A DNA stretch of 64,000 nt from Actinomycetota bacterium. GTDB taxonomy: Bacteria > Actinomycetota > Geothermincolia > Geothermincolales > RBG-13-55-18. The notes below the pieces were generated by a model that saw only the letters and a program-made list of their open reading frames with translations, did no database searches and was not told the DNA's origin. Every line of letters begins with the position of its first letter. Positions within the stretch are counted from its first letter, which is position 1. Positions 1 to 14,207 of the stretch are shown here, in pieces. A program made the translations under genes and the position numbers. The stretch covers positions 11,343-75,342 of the forward strand of contig JAXHVT010000027.1 in assembly GCA_034188985.1 (NCBI GenBank), written 5' to 3'.

Positions 1-1312
1 CGAAAGCGTCGACGTTCACGAAATTATGGTCCGTATCGGGGTTGCCATAGCCCAGCGCCTCAACTGTGAGCACGTGCTCCCCGTATTTCAGTCCTGCTGA
101 GTTGAAGTCCACCACCTGGTAGGTGGTATCGGGATTGTACATGTTGACCTCGGTCACGAACTCGCCGTCGATGTAGACGTTTGCCGATCCACAGCTCCAG
201 TACTTGGCCACGATCATCTTCACCTGGCGGCCCCGGAAGCGGAACTGTAGCGTGGAACCGAGGTCCTCAGCCACGCGGATCTTACCGTTGGTGGGGCCCT
301 CGTATGACTCGTCCACCCAAAGGCCTTGCGCGCTGATGGAGGGATCATTTTCCTCGAAGATCTGGGGGGTGCTCTGGCGAGCCTCCACCTGCACCTTCTC
401 GGACTCGACTCCATACACGTTGACGGCGCTCACCGCGAAAACGGTGCCGGCCTCTCCTTTCTTATCGTAGTAGTGATTATCGCCAAGAAGCTGCCCGTTT
501 ATCTTCCTAAAGCGGCCATGCACCTGGACATAGACGTTATAGCCGGCGAGGTTCGCCTCGCTGTTAGGCTCCCAGTCGATGCTCACGCCGGGATCGATAG
601 CCACCACATCCACGCCCTGCGGGGGCGCCGGGGGCAGGTTATTGTAGGTCTGCACCTCCATTGCCTCGGAGGGTTCGCTTTCCTCCCCCCACCTCGCCAC
701 CGCGGTAACCCAGTAGCGGTAGGTGGCCCCGGGCTCGATATCCTTATCCTTGTAGCTGGTCTTCCTTGTCTTGGCTATTGGCTCCAGGTCGCCGTTCTCC
801 TGGCCGCCCTCTTTAACCTCCTGCCTGTATACGAGGTAGGCGTCCACGACTTTCTTGGGATTGTTACCATCCCAGCTCAGGCGGACCTGGGGCGTTTTAC
901 CCGGGACGAACTCGCCCCGCAGGTCCTTGGGCGGGTTGATTATCCTTTTCGCGGGTTCCGGCTCCTCATCCTTGGGCCTGGCAGTATCGACGTCTTCGGG
1001 GTTATCATCCGCGGTCTCGGACTCCTCGCCCGGGACCGCGGGTATGTTATCGTCAACGGCCACGGCCGGCTCCTCGGCGACGGCCGTCTCGGCGACTGCC
1101 GCCGCTTCGAGTGCCTCGGATTGGGGGATCTCCACGGATATCATATCGGCAAGATCGAGGTTCGAAAACGCCTCTAGTGAAGCGGTCTCCGCCGCCCGCT
1201 CCTCCTGAACCGGTGAGGCGCCCGGGGAGGCCATCCCCAGGATAAGGGCGCAGACCACGAAAACGGCGGTGATGGCTATACTTGCCGCTATATGCTTCCT
1301 GAATCCTTTCAT
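1..1312 (-). CDS. Secreted fibronectin type III domain protein, paralog of 2011..3327; runs off the left edge a few codons before its stop
   Basis: Not in ORF track. ATG at 1312 gives MKGFRKHIAASIAITAVFVVCAL; the frame at position 1 reads NFVNVDAF, matching the C-terminus of the paralog (NFVNIDAFEVR). Confidence 0.85.
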   Translation of the reverse strand, partial: MKGFRKHIAASIAITAVFVVCALILGMASPGASPVQEERAAETASLEAFSNLDLADMISVEIPQSEALEAAAVAETAVAEEPAVAVDDNIPAVPGEESETADDNPEDVDTARPKDEEPEPAKRIINPPKDLRGEFVPGKTPQVRLSWDGNNPKKVVDAYLVYRQEVKEGGQENGDLEPIAKTRKTSYKDKDIEPGATYRYWVTAVARWGEESEPSEAMEVQTYNNLPPAPPQGVDVVAIDPGVSIDWEPNSEANLAGYNVYVQVHGRFRKINGQLLGDNHYYDKKGEAGTVFAVSAVNVYGVESEKVQVEARQSTPQIFEENDPSISAQGLWVDESYEGPTNGKIRVAEDLGSTLQFRFRGRQVKMIVAKYWSCGSANVYIDGEFVTEVNMYNPDTTYQVVDFNSAGLKYGEHVLTVEALGYGNPDTDHNFVNVDAF

Positions 1313-1600
1313 CTCTATCACCTTGCCGTTTTGCTCGGTCTTCCTCCGGCCTTGTCAGCGGTTTTTGTGGGCTCATCTTTTAAAACGACACCTAATTAGT
1401 TACGTACCCATAAAACTTGGGTTTCGGTCGAATGGGACGGTGAACGGCTCATTTCGGGGGGGTAAAAGGTACCGGCCGGATCACCGGTTTTCGGGGATGG
1501 GAAAGGCTATAAAAGCCCAGTTCAAACATTATATTGCCTTCTGTATATTAATCGTGGTATCGTAGTGAGCCAGCGGTCTTAAAACCGACCCCTAAAAAAC

Positions 1601-1692
1601 TTCAGAATATGGGGTCAGGCACTGACATCGGACATTTTGCAGGCTATTCAGAATATGGGGTCAGGCACTGACATCGGACATTTTGCAGGCTA
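1601..1692 (+). repeat. Perfect 46-bp tandem duplication of the REP-like element
   Basis: ttcagaatatggggtcaggcactgacatcggacattttgcaggcta at 1601-1646 and 1647-1692. Confidence 0.95.
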
Positions 1693-2010
1693 GAGTGGAA
1701 ATGGTCTCGAAGTCGCCGTGGTCCAGCGATGTATCACATTTATTGATGCGGGCATATTCATCAGGTTTGGTTTTTCCAGTACCGGGAATAATATCGCAGA
1801 GGGTAAACATCGCCGGTACCGCACGGATCCGACCCGGAAGCGACACCTGAGCCCAAACCCCGGGCACGCTTACTGGGCTTATTCCCGTGCCCGGGGAAAG
1901 GCGCGAGGCCGCTCTGAGAGCGGCCCCTTTTGCGGGCTACGGTTTTGCAGGCCTTTGTGTAAATCGTCTGCGTGTCTTTTTCTTGCCTCCTACGTTTTTT
2001 ACGAGAAACC

Positions 2011-3327
2011 TCATCGCACCTCAAAGGCGTCGATGTTAACGAAGTTGTAGTCGCCCTCGGGGTTTCCCGAACCGAGCACCTCCACGGTAAGTACGTGCTT
2101 GCCGCTCTTGAGCCCCGGTACGTTCACGTCAACCACCTGATAGATCGGGTCGGCGCTGTACTGATTGATGGTATCCACAAAGACACCGTCGATGTATACG
2201 TTGGCGGAACCGCAGGTCCAGTAATTTGCCACGATCATCTTCACCTGGTTGCCCTTGAAGGTGAAGTAAAGATTGGAGCCGGTATCCTCCGCCACCCTGA
2301 TCTTACCGTTGGTGGGACCCTCGTAGGTCTCTTCCACCCACAAGCCTTCAACGGTGATGGAGGGATCGTTCTCCTCGTAGACCACCGCGACGCTCTGGGC
2401 GGCCTCCACCTTGACGTACTCGGACTCCACACCGTAGAAGTTCACACAAGCTACGGCGTAGACGCTGCCGGCCAGGCCCTCGACATCGTAGTAGTGGTTA
2501 TCCACAAGGGGCTCGTCGTTGATCTTGCTCCATTTACCGCTGGAGCCCTGAGGCTCATAGACGTTGTAGCCGGCCAGGCCCCTCTCTGAGGATGCGTCCC
2601 AGTCGATGCTCACGCCGGGATCGATGGCCACGGCCGTTACGTTGGCCGGCGCCACCGGGGGAACGGGCGCGTAGGTCTCGACCTCGATAGCCTTCGAGGG
2701 CTCGCTCTCCTCTCCGGTCCTGGAGACGGCGGTAACCCAGTAGCGGTAGGTGCAGCCGGGTTTTATCTCGTAATCCTCGTACTCCGCTTTCTTGGTCTTG
2801 GCGATGGGCTTGGTGGGACCATCCTGTACTACATCGTCATCCGCCAACTTGCGGTAGACCAGGAAATAGCTGTAGACCTTTTTGTTGTTATTCGGGTCCC
2901 AGGTCAGCTGGATATAGGGCTCTTTCTCGGGAATGAAAGTCCCCGCCAGGTCCTTGGGCGGATTGATGATCAATACGGGAGATGGCTCAACGCTGGGAGG
3001 CTTGGCCGTCTCAACGTCGGCATTATCCTTCCCGGGGTTATCCTCCGGTACATCGGGAGCGGGAGCCGTCACCGGTACCGGATCCGCCGCCTGGGGGGCC
3101 TCGACTGCGGCCTCTTCCTCCACCGCGGTTAGCGCTGCGCTCGCCTCGCCCGCCGCCGTGATTATCTCGTCGGGGACCAGTGAGGCCACGGAGTGTACCT
3201 GCGTCCCCCCGCTATTCTCGTCGGGTGAGGATACGGGAACCGCGGCCACGCTCAAGGTGAGCGCGCAAACCACAAAAACGGCGGTGATGGCTATGCTTGC
3301 CGCTATGTGCTTCTTAAACCCTTTCAT
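2011..3327 (-). CDS. Secreted protein with two FN3-like domains and a C-terminal jelly-roll/carbohydrate-binding-like domain
   Basis: Signal peptide, acidic Pro/Ala linker, FN3 signatures (LTWDP..YLVYRK, YRYWVTAVSRTGEESEPS, GYNVY), C-terminal FTFKGNQV..ANVYIDG..GKHVLTVEV. Confidence 0.8.
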   Translation of the reverse strand: MKGFKKHIAASIAITAVFVVCALTLSVAAVPVSSPDENSGGTQVHSVASLVPDEIITAAGEASAALTAVEEEAAVEAPQAADPVPVTAPAPDVPEDNPGKDNADVETAKPPSVEPSPVLIINPPKDLAGTFIPEKEPYIQLTWDPNNNKKVYSYFLVYRKLADDDVVQDGPTKPIAKTKKAEYEDYEIKPGCTYRYWVTAVSRTGEESEPSKAIEVETYAPVPPVAPANVTAVAIDPGVSIDWDASSERGLAGYNVYEPQGSSGKWSKINDEPLVDNHYYDVEGLAGSVYAVACVNFYGVESEYVKVEAAQSVAVVYEENDPSITVEGLWVEETYEGPTNGKIRVAEDTGSNLYFTFKGNQVKMIVANYWTCGSANVYIDGVFVDTINQYSADPIYQVVDVNVPGLKSGKHVLTVEVLGSGNPEGDYNFVNIDAFEVR

Positions 3328-3771
3328 TTTAACCTTCCCACCTTTTACGTTCCTTTCTTAACCGCTTCTGTGAGCCTTTTTGCATCCTCACTTTTAAAAC
3401 GGCCTGTTATTTGACGGCGTTCACAAATTCCTGGGCTGCGGAGCCTTTCGACGGTGAAAGGTGCCTATCTAGAGGCAAGCGGAAGGCTTGCTTCTTGATA
3501 CCCCCATAGGTATTAAAATGGCTGGTTAGACATTGCCCGGGGTTAGCGTACGTTTGCATCTCGATAGATTGAACGGTCCGGCTAGATATGTGCGGTGTAT
3601 ATCATGCCACTGGCGTTGTTTGTGGCTCAGGACGGGTATGGCAGTGCCGAGACCAGTGGTTTTTCCGTCAGGGTGATGGCCGGAAAGGCACGATGGCCGG
3701 GACGGCGTATAGGGGGCACGGAGAGCGTTTTTCCGGTTAGCGGGCTCGAAGCCGGGCTATTATACCCCAGC

Positions 3772-3927
3772 CTAGCGGCAGCGGGGAGCGCCGTGAAGCG
3801 TGAGATACTGGGAATAGCAATCGGGCCAGATGATCTGGCACGCGCCGAAGAAAAAACGGTTTATGCGCATGACCTTTATCTGGGGTTTGCTATATGGTTT
3901 CCTGCCTTTTTGTATCCTGCTAGACAT
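3772..3927 (-). CDS. Putative RiPP precursor, 51 aa: MSSRIQKGRKPYSKPQIKVMRINRFFFGACQIIWPDCYSQYLTLHGAPRCR
   Basis: Translated by hand. ATG overlaps the rSAM stop (ATGTCTAG), GAGGGTG lies upstream, YxxPxI RRE-binding motif, three Cys in the C-terminal half. Confidence 0.8.
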   Translation of the reverse strand: MSSRIQKGRKPYSKPQIKVMRINRFFFGACQIIWPDCYSQYLTLHGAPRCR

Positions 3928-4954
3928 CGTCCAACACCCTCATCAAGGCTTTCGTAAGCCTGCATTTCTCCCGGCTTACGGCTATTATCTCTCCACATTC
4001 CTGATAGGAAAGCGCCCGACAAATGCCACATTTATCCAGGTAAGAGCACTCATCGCACTCTTCCGGGAGATCCATCTCCCTTCTCCGGAGTTCCTCCAGT
4101 TGTGGGGATTTCCTCCATATTTCGACGAATCTTTCCTGCTGTATGTTTCCTACCACAAGAGGGAAGGCTACACAAGGATAGACGTCACCGTAAGGGTTAA
4201 TGGCGAACACGGTGCGCCCCGCTCCGCAGTAGCGCTTGTTCACGGCGTCGGGGTCCTCCGGCCCTATGACACATCGCTGCACGTATTCGACTACGTCCTC
4301 TATCTCCTCCCCCAGGACCTGGCTGAGATAGCCAGGTAGATAATCGACCTCGAAACGCATGAAACGCTCCAGGCCTTCATCATCCAGGCGCAGCCGGGTG
4401 GGGGCCGGGTCCCGGTCGTTGCGGGGAAAGATGAGGGAGCTGAACATAACACGAACCTCGAGTTCCCCGGCCAATCCGGCTATCTCCTCCACTTCTTCGA
4501 GATTGAAATCACCCACGATAGTCTTCAGCATAAACGGTATTTCCTCCTCTTTCAGGAGGTCCAGGGCCCTGCGGGTGGCCAGGAAGGAACCCTTTTCGCC
4601 GGTAAGGAAATCGTGGGTCTCCGGGCTTGCGCCATAGATGCTCACATCGATCATCAGGGTGGGCGTCTGTCCAAGGAGGCGGATCCTCTCCCTATCCAGC
4701 AGGGTGGCGTTGGTCTGCAGGGTTATCGCGAAGTGCCTATCGACCGCGGCGGACAGCAAATGGAAGAGGTCCTGCCGCAGCAGTGGTTCCCCACCGGTGA
4801 AGGCCAGGAAGAGGCACCCGGCATCCGCCAGCTCGTCCAGCACTCCGATCCATCGCTCCAGATTCATCTCTACACCGGCGGGCTTGTACTGGTAACAGTG
4901 GCGGCAGGAGAGATTGCAGCGGTGCGTCAGTTCCAGACTCCCCGAGAAGGGCAT
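3920..4954 (-). CDS. Radical SAM/SPASM domain peptide maturase
   Basis: CNLSCRHC, TGGEPLL, SPASM motifs CGAG..INPYGDVYPC and CDECSYLDKCGICRA..C. Confidence 0.92.
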   Translation of the reverse strand: MPFSGSLELTHRCNLSCRHCYQYKPAGVEMNLERWIGVLDELADAGCLFLAFTGGEPLLRQDLFHLLSAAVDRHFAITLQTNATLLDRERIRLLGQTPTLMIDVSIYGASPETHDFLTGEKGSFLATRRALDLLKEEEIPFMLKTIVGDFNLEEVEEIAGLAGELEVRVMFSSLIFPRNDRDPAPTRLRLDDEGLERFMRFEVDYLPGYLSQVLGEEIEDVVEYVQRCVIGPEDPDAVNKRYCGAGRTVFAINPYGDVYPCVAFPLVVGNIQQERFVEIWRKSPQLEELRRREMDLPEECDECSYLDKCGICRALSYQECGEIIAVSREKCRLTKALMRVLDDV

Positions 4955-4989
4955 GAAACTCTCCTGTATCCTGTCTACGAATCCTCTGT

Positions 4990-5874
4990 CTATGGTCCTT
5001 TTCCTCCTTCAAGCGAGAAATCCTTGAGCCATGCGGCCACGTCGTCCTCCAACCTGAGACTCAGTTTGAATATCGGGACGGCATCGGCTAATCTTGAAAT
5101 ATTCTCCAGAAGCTTGCTTTCCTCGCCCTTGTGGCCGAGTCGCGGCGCGTCTACGGCCAGCTCGGCCACCGCCTCCGCGGCGGACATATACCTCAAGCCC
5201 GGGGGCAATTCGCGATGCAGGATAAAAACCGCCCTCAGGGGAAGGCCGCCGTAAGCCACTTTGCCACCCTCCCTGCCCGGCCAAGGAGTACCGAAGAGGC
5301 GCTGCCTGTCTGCTAACTCCCTCACCGCTACCAGGTCGTCCCCCAGGACCTCCGAGGAGTGAAAACTCCGGACCAGCGTGGTCTTCCCAGCCCTGGTGTG
5401 ACCCACGAACGCATACGCCTCACCCTCTATTACCACGCCGGCGGCGTGAAGAAGCGTGCCCCCTTCATCGAGAAGACGGAGCTGCAGGCAGGCCAGCATG
5501 AAGGCCTGCACGGCCTCGCGAACCGCCTCTTCCTCCTCCACCACCCGCCAAGGTCCCCGCAGGGATGGCACGGCCATCTCCCCCCTGGCCTCCCGGGGGT
5601 TGATGACGGCCAGAAGCCTCTTCTTGCCGTTGATCCCCTCGAAGAGAAGTTCGTCGCCTCTACTGGTGAGCACGAACTTGGAGGGAAAGAAATGCTTGAG
5701 CGGGTCGGCCTGAACGACCTCGTCATGGTTTAAGGCGATAACGATATCTGGATGCGAGGTATGGCTTCGTGGGGCGAAATGCCCCATGCGAGTAGGAAGA
5801 AAACCCGAAGCGTCTCCCGCTTTCGAGGATATCTCAACTTTTATTCCGGCTATAAGGTGTTCGGCTTTCCACAT
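4990..5874 (-). CDS. HPr kinase-like P-loop protein (RiPP-cluster kinase-like)
   Basis: LLHAAGV, Walker A GHTRAGKTT, LGDD, GTPW. Start moved to ATG 5874 (or TTG near 5913) to avoid overlapping the PqqD gene. Confidence 0.8.
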   Translation of the reverse strand: MWKAEHLIAGIKVEISSKAGDASGFLPTRMGHFAPRSHTSHPDIVIALNHDEVVQADPLKHFFPSKFVLTSRGDELLFEGINGKKRLLAVINPREARGEMAVPSLRGPWRVVEEEEAVREAVQAFMLACLQLRLLDEGGTLLHAAGVVIEGEAYAFVGHTRAGKTTLVRSFHSSEVLGDDLVAVRELADRQRLFGTPWPGREGGKVAYGGLPLRAVFILHRELPPGLRYMSAAEAVAELAVDAPRLGHKGEESKLLENISRLADAVPIFKLSLRLEDDVAAWLKDFSLEGGKGP

Positions 5875-5917
5875 ATATTTCCCGTATATTAGCCGTATAT
5901 TTCCTGTATCCAATTTT

Positions 5918-6235
5918 CTAGCTTCGTCCCGCCTCGATGATCTTAGCCACGCCTCGATCCACCAGGCTCGCGGCGAACTCGAGCGTGTCCTCCAGGGCCG
6001 TTTCCATCCCCACCGCGAATTCCCCGACCAACGACTCGGCGATATCCCGAAGGGTCTCGTCACCACTCAGGCGGGACCATATGAAGGAGCCCACGGAGTC
6101 CAGCTGCATAACCTCGTCCTGCTTTACGTTTACCAGGATGGTCTCCTCCCCCACCTTGCGCCAAGCGATATCCGGGAGGCGTCTCAGCCTGTCTCCGGGA
6201 CCCGGCTTCTGAAGCCCCTTTTTGCCCTCACTCAT
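5918..6235 (-). CDS. PqqD family / RiPP recognition element (lasso B1-like)
   Basis: IAWRKVGEETILVN..LDSVGSFIWSRL..TLRDIAESL..EF..D.LEF..L..RG pattern, about 100 aa. Confidence 0.9.
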   Translation of the reverse strand: MSEGKKGLQKPGPGDRLRRLPDIAWRKVGEETILVNVKQDEVMQLDSVGSFIWSRLSGDETLRDIAESLVGEFAVGMETALEDTLEFAASLVDRGVAKIIEAGRS

Positions 6236-6716
6236 TCCCGAGTTCCTCGAAGCTGCTCGGGGGCTCGTTCACCGGGTTTCCATCCACCGCCACCCAGCAG
6301 TGGCCCTCCATCTGCCCGTTGTCACCGCGCACGCCGAAGACCAGGTGGGCGTCATGACCTTCCTCGCGCAGCACCCGGGCCAGGGTCAGCGAGCGGACCA
6401 GGCAGGAGGGGCGCAAGCCTATCCTCTCCAACAGGGAGAACCATTTGCACGCCCGGTTCATAACCAGGTCCTCCCTGGTGGGGTGCCTGTCTATCAAGCG
6501 GCCATCCAGCTTCCTGAGTTCCCTGCCCGGGAAGAGGATAGAGCGCAGAAGTGCGATCCCCGACCTGGCATAGAGGCGGGCGGCCTCCCGACACTCGATT
6601 CCCTTATCTTTCCATAAGGCGATTAACCATTTCTCCTGGCGAAACATAACCCTTACAGTATACCCCCTACTATCGACGAGGTCAGCCCTCGAGCCCCCTG
6701 TCGAAATACCGATCAT
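6228..6716 (-). CDS. Lasso peptide B2-like leader peptidase (transglutaminase-like)
   Basis: SCLVRSL (catalytic Cys), LVFGV, GHCWV (catalytic His). The true start may be the ATG near 6647, just after a TATACT. Confidence 0.88.
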   Translation of the reverse strand: MIGISTGGSRADLVDSRGYTVRVMFRQEKWLIALWKDKGIECREAARLYARSGIALLRSILFPGRELRKLDGRLIDRHPTREDLVMNRACKWFSLLERIGLRPSCLVRSLTLARVLREEGHDAHLVFGVRGDNGQMEGHCWVAVDGNPVNEPPSSFEELGNE

Positions 6717-6784
6717 CTACCTGTATTTCCCTATCCAACGTTTCAACACCCCCCACCACTACTCCTCCAGCCCATCCCCAAATA

Positions 6785-6821
6785 TCAGAAAATGGGGTCA
6801 GGCACTGACATCGGACATTTT
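6785..6821 (+). repeat. REP-like element upstream of the RAYT
   Basis: tcagaaaatggggtcaggcactgacatcggacatttt. Confidence 0.9.
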
Positions 6822-6913
6822 CATCAAAAGATAAGGGGACCTCGAGATAGTATCCACTTTCGGTTGTCTCTATCAAGTAATATTATAAGTTAGGTAATAT
6901 AATAATTATTAGT

Positions 6914-7918
6914 ATGTTAGGTAATATAATGAGGCCTTTAAGAGCCAAGTACAAGGGAGCTATATATCACGTCTTTTCCAGAGGCAATAAGAACGACGAT
7001 ATATTCAAGTGTGCTGACAATAAAGGCTATTTCCTTGAATTGCTCAGTAAAGGAGTGTGTAAATATCATATAAGGCTCTACGCTTACTGTGTTATGGTCA
7101 ACCACTATCACCTTCTTATTCAGACTCTTGAAAACAATCTGTCCGAGTTTATGCATTATCTAGGCTCTTCATACGCCACTCATATAGTAAAGAATGGGTG
7201 GATAGGCCACGTTTTCGCTGGTAGGTACAAATCCATTTGCGTGGATAGAGAAGAATACCTTCTTACGCTAAGTAGATATATCCACCTGAATCCCGTTGAG
7301 GCCGGAATCGTGAAAAGGCCAGAGGAATATTTCTGGTCGAGTTATCCCGTCTACGTATGTGAGGATGAAGAGCCACCATGGATTTTTACCGAATGGCTGA
7401 TAGATCACTTTGGAACTGAATTATTCGAGGCAAGAGCCAGATACAAAGAATTCGTGGAGTCTAGAATCGAAGACATTCCTGCTTATCCCAAGGAAAGAAT
7501 TGTGGCCCAATCTATCATGGGAAAAGCAAATTTCCTGGATGAAGTCTTATTACGCATGAATGTAACCTCGCTATCGGAGAATGTAACTGGAAGAAGATAT
7601 TTCCTGAAGCGGAATAAGCTAAGCGACCTTCATGAAGCGATATGCGATTATTACGGGCTCGAGAACCTCAGGATTGTTTATGACGGTACACGTGAGGATC
7701 ACAATAAACGCAGGGAGCCCAGAAAGCTATTTATCTATCTCGCCAAGGAGCTGACGCCATCATTCTACCGGGATATCATCGAAATGCTAGGCGGGATAGA
7801 CGCTGACGCAATTACGAAGCAGTATATCAGGATGAAAAAGAAACTTGCGGAAAATCCAGCTTATAGGACTAGAATGGACGAGGTAATAAGCACGATCATT
7901 TCGCTTATCGATCAATGA
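6914..7918 (+). CDS. REP-associated tyrosine transposase (RAYT, Y1 HUH family) with C-terminal DnaA-like HTH extension
   Basis: RPLR..YHVFSRGN, HUH motif MVNHYHLL, GHVFAGRYKS, RYIHLNPVEAG, WSSY; C-terminal RKLFIYLAKELT..I.EMLGG. Likely start 6929; visibly AT-rich. Confidence 0.92.
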   Translation: MLGNIMRPLRAKYKGAIYHVFSRGNKNDDIFKCADNKGYFLELLSKGVCKYHIRLYAYCVMVNHYHLLIQTLENNLSEFMHYLGSSYATHIVKNGWIGHVFAGRYKSICVDREEYLLTLSRYIHLNPVEAGIVKRPEEYFWSSYPVYVCEDEEPPWIFTEWLIDHFGTELFEARARYKEFVESRIEDIPAYPKERIVAQSIMGKANFLDEVLLRMNVTSLSENVTGRRYFLKRNKLSDLHEAICDYYGLENLRIVYDGTREDHNKRREPRKLFIYLAKELTPSFYRDIIEMLGGIDADAITKQYIRMKKKLAENPAYRTRMDEVISTIISLIDQ

Positions 7919-7940
7919 TTTCGCAAATCACATACCTGCC

Positions 7941-9104
7941 TTGTATATGTTTAAATATAGGCAAGTCGATTATACAAGGGTGCTTTCTTTGATGAATGAT
8001 GTCAAGAAAAGGGCGAGCCATTTTATCCTTTCTGCAGTTGTATACGCATTCGGCTGCGAAGAAGAGGCTTCCAGGCTATCTAGCATATCGCAAATCCTCA
8101 CCCAATCTGACCTGAAGAGGGTGATCGGAAATGCCGAGTATCATAAGCTTGAACCGCTGTTACATTGTATCTGTGAGGATTGTATGAAGCTCGGCTATCC
8201 CTTACATATACCGGATTCTTTTCTCGACCACTTGTCAGCCGTTTACGACAGAGAGCTGGCCCGCTCAGCGATCATCCTCCACGGTGCCCGTAAAGCCTTC
8301 TCAGCTCTCGAGCATGCCGGGGTCAGGGTTGTACCACTCAAGGGAGTCTACTTATCATCCCGATTCTATGAAATGGAAGGCGCTCGCTCTTTCCGCGACC
8401 TGGATCTCCTTGTGGAAAGAGATGCACTGCCAGCATTGAACGAAGCTTTACTTGGTTCCGGATTCTTGCCCCATCCAGGAAGGCCATCCTTTGTGCCCGC
8501 CCCCGCATATACGGTATATTTTCTGCCCATGGAGAACAGCGATTTGAACATGGAGATCGACATCCACGTAGGGCTGCACTGGCCCCAGGAGTATTTCCGG
8601 CGCACCTCCCTGCGCCCCGAGGATCTGTGGTCGGAGGCTTGCCCGTATAACTACGAAGGAACAGTTACCTGGAGCATGAGCCTGGAACACCTGGTTATCA
8701 CAACATTGCTGGACGTGGCGATAAACCACCGCTACGCGCTTCTGATCAAATTCCGGGATATCGTAGAGATAATGCATAAAATGGATATCGACTGGGCAAG
8801 CGTAATCGAATGGTGCCAAACCTGGAAGGTCGTGAGCTTCGTGAGTCCAGGCTTGAGCCTCCTAAAGGGACTCCTAGCTTACTCAACCGATCTGACTGAT
8901 AATTTAAGTATCCCTGTCCCCACTTACCTGCTCTTGAAGCTCTTCTCGAGAGAACTAGCCGTGGAAGATCTGCCTGATCGCCGTGCCCGTGCTTTCAGTC
9001 CTTCCAACCTATTGTTCTTTCTGCTGGCGGATACATTCCGTGAAAGAGCTCGCGGCCTTATACATATGCCCGGTCATATCCTGAGAGGACGTCGGCGGTT
9101 CTGA
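7941..9104 (+). CDS. Nucleotidyltransferase family protein (NTP_transf_5-like)
   Basis: VPLKGVYL, R.FRDLDLLV, EIDIH motifs. Confidence 0.85.
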   Translation: MYMFKYRQVDYTRVLSLMNDVKKRASHFILSAVVYAFGCEEEASRLSSISQILTQSDLKRVIGNAEYHKLEPLLHCICEDCMKLGYPLHIPDSFLDHLSAVYDRELARSAIILHGARKAFSALEHAGVRVVPLKGVYLSSRFYEMEGARSFRDLDLLVERDALPALNEALLGSGFLPHPGRPSFVPAPAYTVYFLPMENSDLNMEIDIHVGLHWPQEYFRRTSLRPEDLWSEACPYNYEGTVTWSMSLEHLVITTLLDVAINHRYALLIKFRDIVEIMHKMDIDWASVIEWCQTWKVVSFVSPGLSLLKGLLAYSTDLTDNLSIPVPTYLLLKLFSRELAVEDLPDRRARAFSPSNLLFFLLADTFRERARGLIHMPGHILRGRRRF

Positions 9105-9356
9105 CCCATATTGATCCGCCAACCATGTGCATACCATGTATACGCGATTTGCGTCGTGGACATAAATCGAGTAGCCGCTGTTTAAATACTTATGATCCGC
9201 CCGCATGCTCACCGTGAATGCTGGTTCTTCTCTCGAGCGGAAACTCAAATGCTTGCAGTAAGACAGCGATAACAATACCCATACCATATTTGATTTACAG
9301 GCTTTATCGCAGCCGGCTTCTACGCATTCTAATCTCATCCTATTTATAGAGGCCAT

Positions 9357-9431
9357 AATGTCCGATGCCAGTGCCTAACCCTATCTTCTGACCTGCGAAA
9401 TGTCCGATGTCAGTGCCTGACCCCATCTTCT
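9357..9431 (-). repeat. Two tandem REP-like elements, inverted relative to the 6785 copy
   Basis: aatgtccgatgccagtgcctaaccctatcttctga (9357-9391) and aaatgtccgatgtcagtgcctgaccccatcttct (9398-9431). Confidence 0.9.
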
Positions 9432-11967
9432 AGAAGGAGGGGATGCCTATGGAGTCGTGGGCTCCCTGCTTGTTGTCGGTGGTCCACATGTACATGGCCC
9501 GCTCGGCCAGTACGCCTACCGGCGAGGAGCCGATGGACTCCACCACCGTGGATACGTCGAGGTTGTTCACCATGTCGTTAACGTGGACGGTAAAGCGGGA
9601 CTCGGGCTGCATGGTAAATACTATCTGCGCGGCGGGTCCGTCGGGACCCAGCAGGGTAACCTGTATCTCCGCGGTCTGCTCATTGGGATTCTGCACCAGC
9701 ACCCACTCGTCGAAGCCTGGGCGGGTGGTGCCCTCTGGCAGGTACCAGTAGGTCTGCGTCTCCGACGATCCTATCGAATCGTGTGCCCCTTGCTTGCCGT
9801 CAGTGGTGTGTATATACATGGCCCGCTCGGCCAGGATGCCCGCCCCGTCCAGCGACTCCACCACAGTGGAAACGTCGTTGTCTACAATAAAGTCGTTCAC
9901 GTGGATGGAGAAGCGCGAGTTGGCCCCCATATCGAACCTAAACTCGTTTCCGATACCCTCGGGGGTAAGGAACTTGGCGTTCACCTTGGTGCCGAAATCG
10001 TTCGGGTTCATCACCAGCACCCACTCGTCGAAGCCTGGGCGGGTGGTGCCCTCTGGCAGGTACCACTCCTGCCTGGGACAGCACAGGCCGATGGAGTCGT
10101 GCGAACCCCGCTTGCCGTCCAGCGTTGCCATGTACATGGCCCGCTCGCAGAAGACCGGCAGGGTCTCCCCCGCCACCTGGGTCAGGCATTCCACCTTGGT
10201 GGAGACTTCCTTATCCGGCACCTCCGGGTTTACGTGGATACTGAACCTGCTGCGGGCCCCGATACCTATCTCCAGCTCCTTCTCCAACCCTCCCCTGCCC
10301 AGGAACTGCACTCTCACCATCACCTCGATATCGTTGGGGTTCTGTATGAGAACCCACTCGTCGAAGCCGTAGTAGGTGGCTCCCTCGGCCAGGTACCAGA
10401 CGGAGCTGGGGGTGAGAATACCCTTGGAGTCATGGGCTCCCCACTTACCGTCCGGCGTACCATACATGTACATAGCCCGTTCGGCCATTATCTTGGCCCC
10501 TCTCACCGAGGTCACCATGGTGGAGACCTGCTCCTCCGGGGCCCACTCGTTGACGTGGATGGTGGACCGGGAATTGGGTAGAGCGTCGATCAATGGGCCC
10601 TCCCTTGGACCGGTGAGGGTCTGAAAGACCACCCTGAACTGGGCGTTGCTGTTCGTGGGGTTCATCACCAGAACCCACTCGTCGAAGCCCTTTCCGGTAT
10701 ATCCCTCCGGCAGGTACCAGCTGAAGGTCTGAAAACCGTATACCACGCAGTCGCCGGCGCCGTTGTACCAGGCCACGTTATATACCTCGTTTCCCGAAAT
10801 GCTATACCTATCGTTGAGGTTTATACTAAAGGCGCCGCTGCCGTCGGTATTGACCTCGAATACCACCGGATCTACGAAAGCGTCCATGGTTATCCTCAGG
10901 TAGGTATTCGGTGGCGCCGTTCCCGAGACCATGTTGGTGTAGGGATCCGCGATTGAGGATATGTCCTGGACGGTGATGCTACGGTTGCCTCCCATGTTAC
11001 AGCGTACCTGGTCACCTGGGACGATGTCATATCCCACGAACCAGGCGTCGAGGAATCCATCCCCCGCCGTAGTGGTATTGCGGGACTCCGACCCGGCATA
11101 GACGGTGAGGTTGGTGCTGGGCAGGTAGTAGCCCATTACCTCATCGTACTGGGGATAAACCACCAGCGTACCCCCTGTATTGGCCGCCTCCATCACCGAG
11201 TTGCCGCCGCCGTCCGTGGAATAGACGAAGGCCACGTCGCCTCGCCGGATATCGAATCCGGATATCGTAGCGCTATAGGCGCCACCCGAGGCGGTGACCT
11301 GCTTGCTGGCGACCCCAGGGGGTATATCACCGTAGTAAGTCGAGGGCGCCTGTATGTATACGTCCACCTTATTGCCCGTTTTAGCTGCACCGCTGACCCT
11401 GTTGTTCGCCGCACTCACGACGGCGGTCAGGGTGCAGTCGACCTCAACCGCTGCCCCCCCGGCCATATCCGTTACCTTTATCTTGTCCCCGGACTGTATA
11501 TCGCCAGATACGGTGGAGAAGTCGGCGGAAAAGAATTTCTGGGAATCCGTGGTGGTATTCACCGTCTTAATGGTGCCCCCACCCCTGATAAGCTCTACCT
11601 TAACTTGAGCGTTAGCATGGGTGGTGTTTCCGGTTACGATATCGAAGGGCAGGGATACCCTAAGCCCTGACTGCACGCTGGCGGCCTCGAAATCCCCGGT
11701 GTTAGCCCCCAGGTCGTCGGGCCAGGCCTCCTCGCGATCCTCCAGCAGGGCATGGGCCTCCTCGGGGCTCCCGGGCATCCCGTCCAGGGGATACTGCAGG
11801 GTTTCGGTTCCGGATGCGGCGCCATGGGCGGTCCGCATGGAACCCGGCAGGGACGCGAGGGGCGAGAAGAGCAGGAGAACGAGCGGCAGGGCCAGCAGGA
11901 TGACGTATAGCCTGGACGCCGGTCTCCTATCTTCTTTCATATCCACTCCCGGGTGCTTGTTCGACAT
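9430..11967 (-). CDS. Secreted surface protein with Ig-like N-terminal region and four C-terminal DUF5719-like repeats
   Basis: Signal peptide; 4x WYL(P/A)EG..GFDEWVL..NP...(A/C)ERAMY...HDS.G. Confidence 0.85.
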   Translation of the reverse strand: MSNKHPGVDMKEDRRPASRLYVILLALPLVLLLFSPLASLPGSMRTAHGAASGTETLQYPLDGMPGSPEEAHALLEDREEAWPDDLGANTGDFEAASVQSGLRVSLPFDIVTGNTTHANAQVKVELIRGGGTIKTVNTTTDSQKFFSADFSTVSGDIQSGDKIKVTDMAGGAAVEVDCTLTAVVSAANNRVSGAAKTGNKVDVYIQAPSTYYGDIPPGVASKQVTASGGAYSATISGFDIRRGDVAFVYSTDGGGNSVMEAANTGGTLVVYPQYDEVMGYYLPSTNLTVYAGSESRNTTTAGDGFLDAWFVGYDIVPGDQVRCNMGGNRSITVQDISSIADPYTNMVSGTAPPNTYLRITMDAFVDPVVFEVNTDGSGAFSINLNDRYSISGNEVYNVAWYNGAGDCVVYGFQTFSWYLPEGYTGKGFDEWVLVMNPTNSNAQFRVVFQTLTGPREGPLIDALPNSRSTIHVNEWAPEEQVSTMVTSVRGAKIMAERAMYMYGTPDGKWGAHDSKGILTPSSVWYLAEGATYYGFDEWVLIQNPNDIEVMVRVQFLGRGGLEKELEIGIGARSRFSIHVNPEVPDKEVSTKVECLTQVAGETLPVFCERAMYMATLDGKRGSHDSIGLCCPRQEWYLPEGTTRPGFDEWVLVMNPNDFGTKVNAKFLTPEGIGNEFRFDMGANSRFSIHVNDFIVDNDVSTVVESLDGAGILAERAMYIHTTDGKQGAHDSIGSSETQTYWYLPEGTTRPGFDEWVLVQNPNEQTAEIQVTLLGPDGPAAQIVFTMQPESRFTVHVNDMVNNLDVSTVVESIGSSPVGVLAERAMYMWTTDNKQGAHDSIGIPSF

Positions 11968-12013
11968 ATTCGATATTACTCCAGGTGACGGCTCCGGCTG
12001 TTCCTTGTTCTTC

Positions 12014-12784
12014 CTACAGGCATTGGATGTCGGTTATATGCCAGAGGCCATAATCCTTGCGCAAGCGCATCTCGGCCGGCTCGGTGCGGCCGCCCTTACT
12101 GACCACCACACCGCTCAGGACCACCTCGCACTCGCCTACCCGATTCACCGTATTCACGGTCATGTAGGCCAACCTGCCCTCCGCTACTTTGGTCAGGAAC
12201 TCCTGCAACTGCCGTATCTCCCTGGCCAGGTCGTCCTCGAAGCTGTCCGGAACCATGTAGTTGGTGCCCCCGCCCAGGTCTCCCTGCAACTGGTTGACTG
12301 CGGCGATGCGCCACAGCCCCCCCTCGTATTTCATAACGAAGGTCCCGTCGCTGCTACCCGAATCCGTGGCCACAGTGAAATAGACGTAGGATGTATTGGG
12401 GTCTCCCACCGGCTGGTAATCGGTGGAGGTTACGTCAAGCCTGGAGATCTCGCCTTCCGCCAGGGCCTTGAAGAAGTTCTGGTGGCGCTGGATCTCGGAG
12501 ACATAGCGTTGATCGGGGCTGGTATAGGAAAGGTCCTCGCCGCTCTGGCCCTCGGCGGTGCCCTCCAGGGAGGAAACACCGACATCGTCCCCGGATTCCT
12601 CCCCTCCCGAGATGGCACCGTCGGGGGCGGTGGTGCTCTCCAGGTCGGACTGGAAGGTGCCGTCCTCCTCGCCGGTGGCACGCTCCTGGCCGTCGTCCCC
12701 GTTATCCGCTATCCTCCAGGCGGCCAGCGATATACCGCCCGCGCAGAGAAGAATCACCAGGGTGATCACAAAAGCTTTCCTCAA
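12014..12784 (-). CDS. Membrane-anchored hypothetical protein with acidic linker and two duplicated NTF2-like domains
   Basis: N-terminal hydrophobic helix; internal repeat Q.F..(L/V)AEG...GLW.I. Confidence 0.7.
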   Translation of the reverse strand: MRKAFVITLVILLCAGGISLAAWRIADNGDDGQERATGEEDGTFQSDLESTTAPDGAISGGEESGDDVGVSSLEGTAEGQSGEDLSYTSPDQRYVSEIQRHQNFFKALAEGEISRLDVTSTDYQPVGDPNTSYVYFTVATDSGSSDGTFVMKYEGGLWRIAAVNQLQGDLGGGTNYMVPDSFEDDLAREIRQLQEFLTKVAEGRLAYMTVNTVNRVGECEVVLSGVVVSKGGRTEPAEMRLRKDYGLWHITDIQCL

Positions 12785-12895
12785 ACCGCTTTCCTTTCCG
12801 TTCTCTTACCTGCCTTATCTATTAATATAATTTGACATAAATATAGCACAGCCTTGTTCACTACCTATTGATATCGACATGGATTATGGTTGTCG

Positions 12896-13666
12896 TTAGC
12901 AGGCGATATCTCGCCCGTCCCTTCCCGTCATGGGCTCCATGGCCCCGTTGAGCTTTCCCTGCAGAAAGTCGGTGGTCCATTCAACCGCCCGTTTGCTGAG
13001 CAGGAGCCCCAGGTGGCCAGCCGGCAACCACACTTTCTGGTTGTAGGCGCAATCGAGGTGGCAGGTGGTATGGGGAATGGTTATGTAATCGAGCATGCTG
13101 TAGATGGACAGGCAGCGCGGCTTGCGGCAACGCGAGCCTTCCCTCTCCATGCAGGTTATAAAATCGCTGCCGGGGTGTAGCTGCCTCCCCGCCTTGGTCA
13201 GGGGGGTCAGGTAGGCCAGGTATGAACCGTGAAAGGGTGTGGCCAGGTACACAACGCGCTTTAGGTCGCGCCACCCCTCCATCTTCTGCAGATAGTAACG
13301 GATGATGACTCCGCCCAGGCTGTGTCCTATGAGATTTACCCTCTCCACGCCCAGGTCACGCTTCATCTCCTCCACCTGTTCGGCCACCACCTCGGCGGAA
13401 CGGGCGATATCCCCCATGGCCATCCAGGGTAGCCGGGCCGTCCTGACCACTAGCCCCTCCCCCCGCAGGCGCGCGCGTAAGATGCACGAGTGTGCCGGCG
13501 TCGAGGCGTAACCATGCACGAAGAAACAGGGGGGTATATCGGGGGGCTTATCCGTACCCGCATCCGGGGCGATATCTATGTTCCCTTCATCGCCGCCACG
13601 TGTGCCGGGGGTAGAAACCAGCTCCAGCTTCTTCCGGTCCTCGTTGTATCCGCCGGCGGCTTTCAT
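12896..13666 (-). CDS. Alpha/beta hydrolase (lipase/esterase)
   Basis: FVHG oxyanion motif, GHSLGG nucleophile elbow, LATPFHGS, D and GH catalytic residues. Confidence 0.88.
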   Translation of the reverse strand: MKAAGGYNEDRKKLELVSTPGTRGGDEGNIDIAPDAGTDKPPDIPPCFFVHGYASTPAHSCILRARLRGEGLVVRTARLPWMAMGDIARSAEVVAEQVEEMKRDLGVERVNLIGHSLGGVIIRYYLQKMEGWRDLKRVVYLATPFHGSYLAYLTPLTKAGRQLHPGSDFITCMEREGSRCRKPRCLSIYSMLDYITIPHTTCHLDCAYNQKVWLPAGHLGLLLSKRAVEWTTDFLQGKLNGAMEPMTGRDGRDIAC

Positions 13667-13855
13667 TTGTATGCTCCTCTTTTCGCCCCGCCCTCTTCGT
13701 GCAATTATTCGCCTTTAACCTCTTCGCCGCCTTCCTTGCTTCCCTGCAAGGGACACCTAAAACCATATCGACTGCTTCCCGCCGCCACTTTAGACAACCT
13801 TTTCTCGTGCCACTCCTTACATCGATGCGGCGAACCCCCTCCGTGCCAACATGAG

Positions 13856-14207
13856 TGAGACACCTGCCCCCCTATAATTCAAGGTAGAAGAGGGCGAGAA
13901 GGAGAGAGATATCATGGAGACTCGGGGAGGGATTCTTTTGGAGGAAAAGGAGGGAATATATAAAGATCGGGATAGGTCGTCCCAAAGCCCGGGTCAGGAG
14001 GCGAAAGAAGCACGCCCCGACCCCGAGGTCACCGCAAGACCCACCCGTAGAAAGCTGACCGCCGAATATAAGCTCAAGATCTTAGCCGAGGCCGACGCCT
14101 GCGCCACCCCGGGGGAGACAGGAGCCCTGCTGAGAAGGGAGGGCCTATATTCCTCCTACCTCTCCCGCTGGAGAAGGGCGCGGCGGCGTGAGCCGCGCCC
14201 TCTATAA
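13856..14207 (+). mobile_element. Truncated IS3-family element: probable left end plus partial orfA; no integrase orfB
   Basis: [42 protein letters not shown]; candidate end TGAGAC at 13856. Confidence 0.75.

Follow-up and report, generated by a model that had tools for sequence, protein, structure and literature searches.

A stretch of 64,000 nucleotides (nt) from an Actinomycetota bacterium of the Geothermincolia (assembly GCA_034188985.1, contig JAXHVT010000027.1, positions 11,343 to 75,342; the whole stretch is called the window below) carries an operon that ends in a short open reading frame (ORF) for a peptide with three cysteines. The operon runs, entirely on the minus strand, from a B2 cysteine protease through a PqqD-type RiPP recognition element (RRE; RiPP, a peptide made on the ribosome and then modified post-translationally), an HprK/ScmC-like kinase and a radical SAM (rSAM)/SPASM enzyme to the peptide, and contains only one rSAM gene. 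A gene for an NTP_transf_5 protein is transcribed divergently from it (Table 1). The preliminary description of this DNA, made from its letters, had read the ORF as a precursor with an N-terminal RRE-docking leader followed by a core rich in cysteine and aromatic residues. Its translation was recovered letter for letter, and the features it had singled out, namely C30, C37, C50, W34, Y38, Y41 and the motif Y12-S-K-P15-Q-I17, were all found in the peptide.

Table 1. Coordinates of the peptide gene, its cassette and the flanking genes in the window and, in the last four rows, of a related cassette in another genome.
Feature	Position (nt)	Strand	Remarks
Candidate precursor peptide gene	3772..3927	minus	ATG start, 51 aa (amino acids) + stop
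Putative leader, residues 1-28	3844-3927	minus	placed by the lasso register (available excerpt of PMC10368454)
Putative core, residues 29-51	3775-3843	minus	placed by the lasso register (available excerpt of PMC10368454)
Radical SAM/SPASM maturase, 344 aa, without fused N-terminal RRE	3920..4954	minus	Pfam Radical_SAM E 4e-23, SPASM E 6e-13
HprK/PEPCK-fold, ScmC-like P-loop protein, putative peptide kinase, ~294 aa	4990..5874	minus	fold, atlas placement
Discrete PqqD-family RRE (B1-like), 105 aa	5918..6235	minus	Pfam PqqD E 3e-14, 53.4 bits, cut-off 23.4
Lasso-type B2 transglutaminase-like cysteine protease, 162 aa	6228..6716	minus	NCBIfam lasso_biosyn_B2 NF033537 57.5 bits, cut-off 33; Pfam Transglut_core3 E 3e-16
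NTP_transf_5 nucleotidyltransferase-fold protein, PsmN/BsfN-like tailoring candidate	7941..9104	plus	divergent from operon; Pfam NTP_transf_5 E 2e-31
IS200/Y1-transposase-like ORF	6914-7918	plus	Pfam Y1_Tnp E 3e-9; NCBIfam REP-associated tyrosine transposase 61 bits, cut-off 80
Two tandem paralogous membrane-anchored proteins, ~440 aa, fn3 + CE2_N-like domains	2-1321, 2011-3327	minus	flank cassette
845-aa repeat protein with DUF5719 match	9430-11967	minus	flanks cassette
97-aa ORF	13914-14207	plus	no Pfam match at E <= 0.01
L090 (G213:C107), other Actinomycetota family: PqqD	281-556		
L090: K-like	537-1397		
L090: rSAM/SPASM	1394-2464		
L090: 48-aa ORF	2427-2573		

The peptide gene begins (ATG, 3925-3927) within the end of the upstream rSAM gene (stop codon, 3920-3922), an overlap of 8 nt (ATGTCTAG), and a purine-rich GAGGG lies ~10 nt 5' of its start. 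No Rfam match (E <= 0.1; 3200-7000 scanned) was found in the 445-nt spacer 3' of the peptide, and no terminator-like site was detected 3' of its stop on the minus strand. The earlier label "unannotated" was right with respect to function; homologues are, on the other hand, named "hypothetical protein" in some public records of metagenome-assembled genomes (MAGs), and the exact peptide sequence is already held in the protein atlas. The gene has thus been called in some public records and never assigned a function. A 64-aa ORF upstream of B2 (6682-6876, minus strand), considered as an alternative precursor, was rejected, having no match in 11 related loci.

The peptide ORF is a real gene under purifying selection. 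Two of the checks suggested in the preliminary description, tBLASTn of the peptide and codon conservation among relatives, bore this out. In a six-frame search of 60 related genomes (tblastn and hidden Markov models), strong matches (E 3e-22 to 5e-8) were obtained in 18, distributed over the family of the window (15/23), its sister family (3/5) and none of the 32 others; the remaining matches all had E >= 0.02. One of these, in G027 (E 0.02, two stops), was discarded; it is not a decayed copy, since its translation has none of the family motifs and cassette genes are absent from its surroundings. Among 20 distinct coding sequences the frame was open, the length was 50-54 aa and the position of the start was shared. 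The median pairwise pN/pS (nonsynonymous over synonymous differences) was 0.35, with 75% of 190 pairs below 0.5, and variable columns were distributed over the three codon positions as 31/27/41 of 43, the third position being the most variable.

One alternative is that the ORF arose by chance, or that it only accompanies an rSAM 3' end or an antisense gene which is itself conserved. Two plus-strand ORFs (3595-3957 and 3830-4339) indeed overlap the peptide in the window, and 16 of 21 distinct copies have an open antisense frame when aligned by codon. However, the sense frame is open in all 21, whereas stops interrupt the antisense frame in five, so that the overlapping plus-strand ORFs are not conserved. 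The variability at sense third positions also argues against this explanation, as does the reach of conservation, which extends ~130 nt beyond the rSAM stop. Of 21 distinct loci, 19 have the peptide ATG within the end of the rSAM gene; in one it follows that end by 1 nt and in one by 173 nt, and the peptide gene of the latter lineage is still conserved. The probability of a chance ORF is therefore considered negligible. The gene is translationally coupled to the rSAM gene. The sequencing runs listed, four from two studies, contain DNA only.

The association extends to the rest of the cassette. The 18 genomes with the peptide are precisely those in which the gene for the kinase-like protein was detected at E <= 1e-27; one further match, elsewhere, was weak (7e-4). 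Of 14 genome loci identified (see below), 11 were compared, three short contigs being left out; the order B2, PqqD, kinase-like, rSAM, peptide was complete in 10 of them, and the eleventh ends at a contig end. In close metagenome loci the peptide was present in all 12 that extend past the rSAM gene, five others stopping earlier. Of the 10 complete genome loci, 8 have the NTP_transf_5 gene next to B2, as do 13 of 17 close loci from metagenomes. The peptide gene, then, occurs only where the cassette occurs. In the window, the ORF at 6914-7918 separates B2 from NTP_transf_5; it has no match in the 11 related loci, where both genes sit much closer together. It resembles an insertion into a shared promoter region and might affect expression of the operon in this genome.

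The best full-length NCBIfam match of the rSAM protein was ScmE (128 bits, cut-off 400), followed by the sactipeptide maturase StsB (125.5 bits, cut-off 625); it also matched MftC (130 bits, cut-off 265), PqqE (119 bits, cut-off 381) and AlbA (87 bits), and its best sequence match in the PDB was SkfB (E 3e-19), which like StsB is a maturase that forms thioethers. The PqqD protein matched ScmD best (38.7 bits, cut-off 100) and fell below the cut-offs of the lasso-specific PqqD models as well (30.7 of 80 bits for lasso_PqqD_Bac, 22.3 of 70 bits for the other). In the B2 protein, C105 and H139 were invariant among 11 sequences. The kinase-like protein received no assignment from Pfam or NCBIfam; its mechanical ORF extends to 6066, while homology to its relatives begins near residue 65. 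Its AlphaFold2 model (predicted local distance difference test, pLDDT, 92) retrieved ATP-PEPCK as the top Foldseek match (E 1e-7) and HPr kinase/phosphorylase at E 6.5e-5, and in the protein atlas 29 of 30 matches put it among clusters of ScmC (PF27840), with a score of 0.97. Compared by profile and sequence only, it gave P-loop-level matches in the PDB (best E 0.018; HprK 0.28), and Pfam Hpr_kinase_C did not match it at E <= 1. The P-loop (Walker A, G-x4-G-K-T; G158, G163, K164, T166) and a D179-D180 pair were invariant in 11 sequences; according to the available part of PMC6993621, the lasso kinase PsmK requires the corresponding DD pair and was inactivated by its mutation.

Across 34 family members of the peptide itself, F25, F26, C30 and C37 are invariant, and at least 90% of the members keep Y12, P15, I22, R24, Y38 and C50; in 18 aligned sequences of the Geothermincolia set, Y12 to residue 46 is free of gaps. 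The N-terminal consensus reads K-x-Y-x-K-P-x-[MI]-x-V-x-[RK]-I-x-R-F-F-F. The leader motif named in the preliminary description, Y12-x-x-P15-x-I/M17, is present and conserved, and Y12 and P15 are among the residues just listed. In lasso leaders, YxxPxL is found at -17 to -12 (PMC10368454, as far as the available excerpt goes). When Y12 is set at -17 accordingly, the scissile bond falls after G28 and F27 stands at -2; this register presupposes the cleavage site. It coincides with the cleavage after FFFG that had been guessed at in the preliminary description, and it agrees with its remark that the penultimate threonine of lasso leaders is absent. With cleavage at this point, the core would follow the pattern G/A-C-x3-[W]-[P]-x-C-Y-S-...-C-R, in which S39 is serine, or threonine in a few members, and the C-terminal third (residues 40-49) is variable. 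Residue 36, at core position 8, is aspartate in only three of the 34 members, namely the window peptide, P0001, which is nearly identical to it, and P0034; the remaining members mostly have N there, or else Q, A, F, L, T and others.

Much of this resembles the phosphorylated or glycosylated lasso clusters for paeninodin (Pade), pseudomycoidin (Psm) and the Bradymonas peptide (Bsf). As described in the accessible portions of PMC10368454 and PMC6993621, these encode a discrete PqqD-type RRE (B1), the transglutaminase-like protease B2, a kinase of the HprK type and a protein of the NTP_transf_5 type, together with a precursor whose leader has Y-x-x-P-x-hydrophobic, and B1 aids both the kinase and B2 (PMC10368454, same limitation). 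A residue other than threonine at -2 also has a precedent there, since isoleucine or valine can stand for Thr(-2) in kinase-containing lasso clusters (PMC10368454, in the part at hand). The kinase-like protein shares with PadeK, PsmK and BsfK the HprK/PEPCK P-loop fold (as modeled), the Walker A motif and what is probably the DD metal site, but it is nearer to ScmC than to canonical HprK. These parallels, together with the aspartate at core position 8 of the window peptide, would suit a true lasso precursor whose cyclase is encoded elsewhere. However, no Asn-synthase-like gene was found within or beside the cassette in any of the genome and metagenome loci examined, and the genome to which the window belongs (97.5% complete) has, on a different contig, a single marginal PF00733 match of 21.7 bits. 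Acidity at core position 8 is confined to the three members named above, and there is no threonine at -2. The lack of a cyclase and of a conserved acidic residue at core positions 7-9 means that the product is not a lasso peptide; a cyclase supplied from elsewhere appears very improbable. Unlike in lasso clusters, the core contains an invariant C-x6-C, and an rSAM/SPASM enzyme stands at the place of the class-defining enzyme.

The second resemblance is to the SynChlorMet cassette (ScmC/D/E/F), in which a ScmC-type protein with the HprK/PEPCK fold is likewise found together with a homologue of PqqD and an rSAM/SPASM enzyme resembling PqqE. Here, in contrast, the scores against ScmC (13.7 bits, cut-off 125), ScmD and ScmE are all far under the cut-offs, one rSAM gene is present instead of two (ScmE and ScmF), and a B2 protease and NTP_transf_5 are added. 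A literature search for "SynChlorMet" found no paper, and we know of no precursor named in the family description of that cassette. With the sactipeptide and ranthipeptide systems (SkfB, StsB, AlbA, PapB, CteB) the locus shares an rSAM/SPASM maturase and a short cysteine-containing precursor with an N-terminal leader. It differs from them in that the RRE is a separate PqqD protein, while their maturases usually carry a fused N-terminal RRE, in that leader and leader protease are of the lasso type, and in that the scores lie under the family cut-offs; a thioether is a candidate modification here. The cluster thus suggests, by analogy, a phosphorylated-lasso-like arrangement in which an rSAM/SPASM enzyme replaces the cyclase, with a more distant likeness to the SynChlorMet type. 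Because it belongs neither to the lasso clusters nor to SynChlorMet, it is grouped here with the rSAM-dependent RiPP systems, as a variant that may amount to a class of its own. In the available text of PMC7470986, ~300 lasso-type discrete RREs beside rSAM enzymes were treated by RRE-Finder as false positives of the lasso model. A literature search found no paper on the arrangement of B2, PqqD, ScmC/HprK-like protein and rSAM enzyme, although the supplements of PMC7470986 and PMC10368454 could list similar clusters, and none on RiPP clusters of Geothermincolia.

Taken with the conservation of the gene, its coupling to the rSAM/SPASM gene and its one-to-one co-occurrence with the PqqD/B2/kinase-like cassette, these comparisons uphold the precursor reading: the ORF probably encodes the precursor (A) of a RiPP that is made by the B2 protease, the PqqD RRE, the HprK/ScmC-like kinase and the rSAM/SPASM enzyme, with the neighboring NTP_transf_5 protein. 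The stand-alone PqqD protein would bind the leader around Y12-P15-I17 and present the peptide to the rSAM/SPASM enzyme. The suggested structure prediction of the peptide with the RRE was carried out with alignments of both partners and gave a score of 0.57 (runs 0.57, 0.56, 0.57), compared with 0.12 for the best control; the runs shared at least 77% of contacts, with a partner pLDDT of at least 51. Of the complexes used for calibration, 58 of 80 solved ones and 2 of 110 mismatched pairs attained the mark, and scores of at most 0.60 at the mark belonged to seven of the 80 solved complexes and to both mismatches. The model thus lends weak support to binding of the leader by PqqD.

The rSAM/SPASM enzyme would then cross-link the core, most likely by thioethers in which one or both cysteines of the C-x6-C unit, C30 and C37, take part; C50 would serve as a third donor or as a disulfide partner. 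That the cross-link is a thioether is a tentative assignment, with chances slightly short of even; one of another kind is rather unlikely. Since W34 is not invariant, the cyclophane at tryptophan that had been considered alongside thioethers is less likely to be a core feature than chemistry at C30/C37. The kinase-like protein may phosphorylate a core hydroxyl, the best candidate being S39 of the conserved C-Y-S motif; this step is possible, if somewhat doubtful. The NTP_transf_5 protein may decorate the core further, as PsmK and PsmN do for pseudomycoidin. Finally, the B2 protease, aided by the RRE, would cut off the leader near G28/G29 and leave a product of ~23 residues; the chances that the cut falls exactly after G28 are about even.

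Several observations weigh against this interpretation. At core positions, W34 is replaced by F, I or A in some members, and P35 also varies. The residue at -2 in the lasso register is phenylalanine and not threonine, isoleucine or valine, so that B2 specificity and the site of cleavage are assigned provisionally; besides, conservation in the 11 sequences is not clear for the last of the three catalytic residues of B2. The kinase-like protein is below every curated cut-off (for HprK_rel_B, 15 of 200 bits, in addition to the ScmC value given above). Because lasso RRE-leader complexes have already been solved, the passing score of the complex model may reflect likeness to them instead of binding by this particular copy. 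In a very close relative, the single public contig that encodes P0001 (94% identical), the C-terminus is frameshifted and C50 is missing. Two further points, the lack of any Pfam or NCBIfam model that matches the peptide and the lack of a transporter gene among the ORFs tested in window positions 1-14000, which is unusual for a secreted peptide, bear at the same time on the two alternatives that are considered in the following. The P0001 peptide has 80 aa and reads on past G-A-P, as would result from an assembly error or a broken copy.

The peptide might be a conserved small cysteine-rich protein that is itself unmodified and acts as an accessory subunit, regulator or metal chaperone of the rSAM enzyme. 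Three conserved cysteines could bind a metal or an Fe-S cluster, and the missing family annotation would be consistent with such a protein. However, the lasso-type Y-x-x-P-x-hydrophobic motif at the N-terminus and the cysteine-rich C-terminus, encoded beside an RRE and a leader protease, speak against it; tandem duplicate copies, as in genome G018 (another genome has two copies on separate contigs), are typical of RiPP precursors; and distant cassettes (see below) retain a small ORF of the same layout beside the kinase-like and rSAM genes. An unmodified protein is accordingly considered improbable.

The peptide could also give rise to a cofactor or a metal-binding factor that stays inside the cell, as in the pyrroloquinoline quinone (PQQ) and mycofactocin pathways, instead of a secreted natural product. 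The enzymes and the role of the peptide as precursor would be the same and only the fate of the product would differ, for which the absence of a transporter gene among the ORFs tested in window positions 1-14000 would be fitting. The pair of stand-alone PqqD-type chaperone and rSAM/SPASM enzyme resembles PqqD/PqqE and MftB/MftC, a likeness that extends to a small, highly conserved peptide such as PqqA or MftA and is mirrored in the MftC and PqqE bit scores. In Solincola-type loci, the identities of the rSAM (55-62%), kinase-like (45-54%) and PqqD (46-55%) proteins are matched or exceeded by that of the peptide (58-72% among Geothermincolia relatives), and the cassette keeps conserved synteny between the same surface-protein genes across genera. 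Yet the MftC and PqqE scores are far under their cut-offs, and kinase, NTP_transf_5 and B2 are extra to the Pqq and Mft pathways, being hallmarks of tailored lasso-type peptides and not of cofactor pathways (PMC6993621 and PMC10368454, judged from the sections available). Core residues 40-49 vary. Moreover, 8 of the 23 genomes of the same family have no strong match to either the peptide or the kinase, so the system is dispensable. A cofactor precursor is thus unlikely, though it is the most credible of the alternatives. To our knowledge, the peptide bears no likeness to the Pqq and Mft precursors.

The peptide family is small and almost confined to MAGs of Candidatus Geothermincolia. A scan of 185,579 species genomes yielded 14 loci, all in Actinomycetota MAGs, five of which bear the name Candidatus Solincola or Candidatus Geothermincola. 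When 400 Actinomycetota genomes were sampled evenly, strong matches were restricted to the family of the window (12/15) and the sister family (2/3). A profile search of 1.84 billion representative proteins found four clusters at E <= 1e-10 and, in P0007, a plausible distant member; two further matches, P0006 and P0008, are repeat proteins and were treated as spurious. A word-indexed search of 5.8 billion proteins, made with a broader alignment, found 33 clusters without any Pfam domain, for which "hypothetical protein" was the sole name.

Three more distant loci are arranged along similar lines. When the 400 Actinomycetota genomes were searched with TIGR04249 (ScmC), none of 401 was above the cut-off, and weak HprK-like matches were seen in 25 genomes. 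Among these weak matches, L090 is a related cassette and L095 has an ordinary lasso-like precursor. The 48-aa ORF of L090 overlaps the end of the rSAM gene and has the layout Y-x-K-P ... FF ... C-x6-C; the contig is short and ends before the positions at which B2 or NTP_transf_5 could show. At L095 (G146:C6, ~1040), an ORF near the HprK-like gene resembles a lasso-type precursor, with Y-E-A-P-R-L ... L-T before the putative core. Two metagenome loci encode kinase-like proteins ~31-39% identical to that of the window. At L080 (107-1933), the ORF directly 5' of the kinase-like gene is small, its leader reading K-K-P-Y-x-K-P-x-I and its core containing C-Y-S, and an S24 peptidase follows the kinase-like gene; at L081 (4355-8537), a comparable small ORF lies 5' of the kinase-like, rSAM and NTP_transf_5 genes. 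Both small ORFs combine a K-K-P-Y-x-x-P-x-[IL] leader with a C-terminal part containing three cysteines, and at both loci an S24-type peptidase, fused to a GNAT domain in L081, takes the place of B2. When the family was compared with the two peptides by hhalign, E was 4.7e-4 (probability 32%) for L080 and 0.014 (probability 3%) for L081; judged from their sequences, the two peptides are leads towards homologues. When the 64-kb window was translated in six frames, the pattern [KR][KRPAT]Y..P.[ILM] was present three times, the peptide being one of these occurrences; 67 kb of other HprK-like loci contain it twice, both times in precursor-like ORFs. L090, L080 and L081 are, in turn, leads that point to a broader ScmC-associated type of precursor.

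Hence the peptide may be the founding precursor of an undescribed RiPP class, a proposal that we put forward tentatively. In this class, the lasso B1/B2 module and the kinase/nucleotidyltransferase pair would have been recombined with an rSAM/SPASM enzyme replacing the cyclase, to yield a cysteine-cross-linked, probably phosphorylated product of ~23 residues, and the signature K-x-Y-x-K-P-x-hydrophobic, FF, C-x6-C would single out substrates, so far unassigned, for the ScmC-type (SynChlorMet-like) cassettes of other lineages, L090, L080 and L081 being examples. If confirmed, a conserved and uncharacterized rSAM/PqqD/HprK-like cassette would have its substrate, the lasso B1/B2 module for recognition and cleavage of leaders could serve a non-lasso pathway, precursors of related ScmC-type cassettes could be found by a simple sequence signature, and the uncultured class Candidatus Geothermincolia, which has provided very few leads to natural products, would gain one. 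The system is small, consisting of five or six genes and a substrate of 51 aa, and thus directly amenable to heterologous expression.

Outside the cassette, counterparts of the flanking surface-protein genes (2-1321, 2011-3327 and 9430-11967) recur around it in most of the related loci. The 97-aa ORF at 13914-14207 is presumably orfA of an IS3-type transposase.

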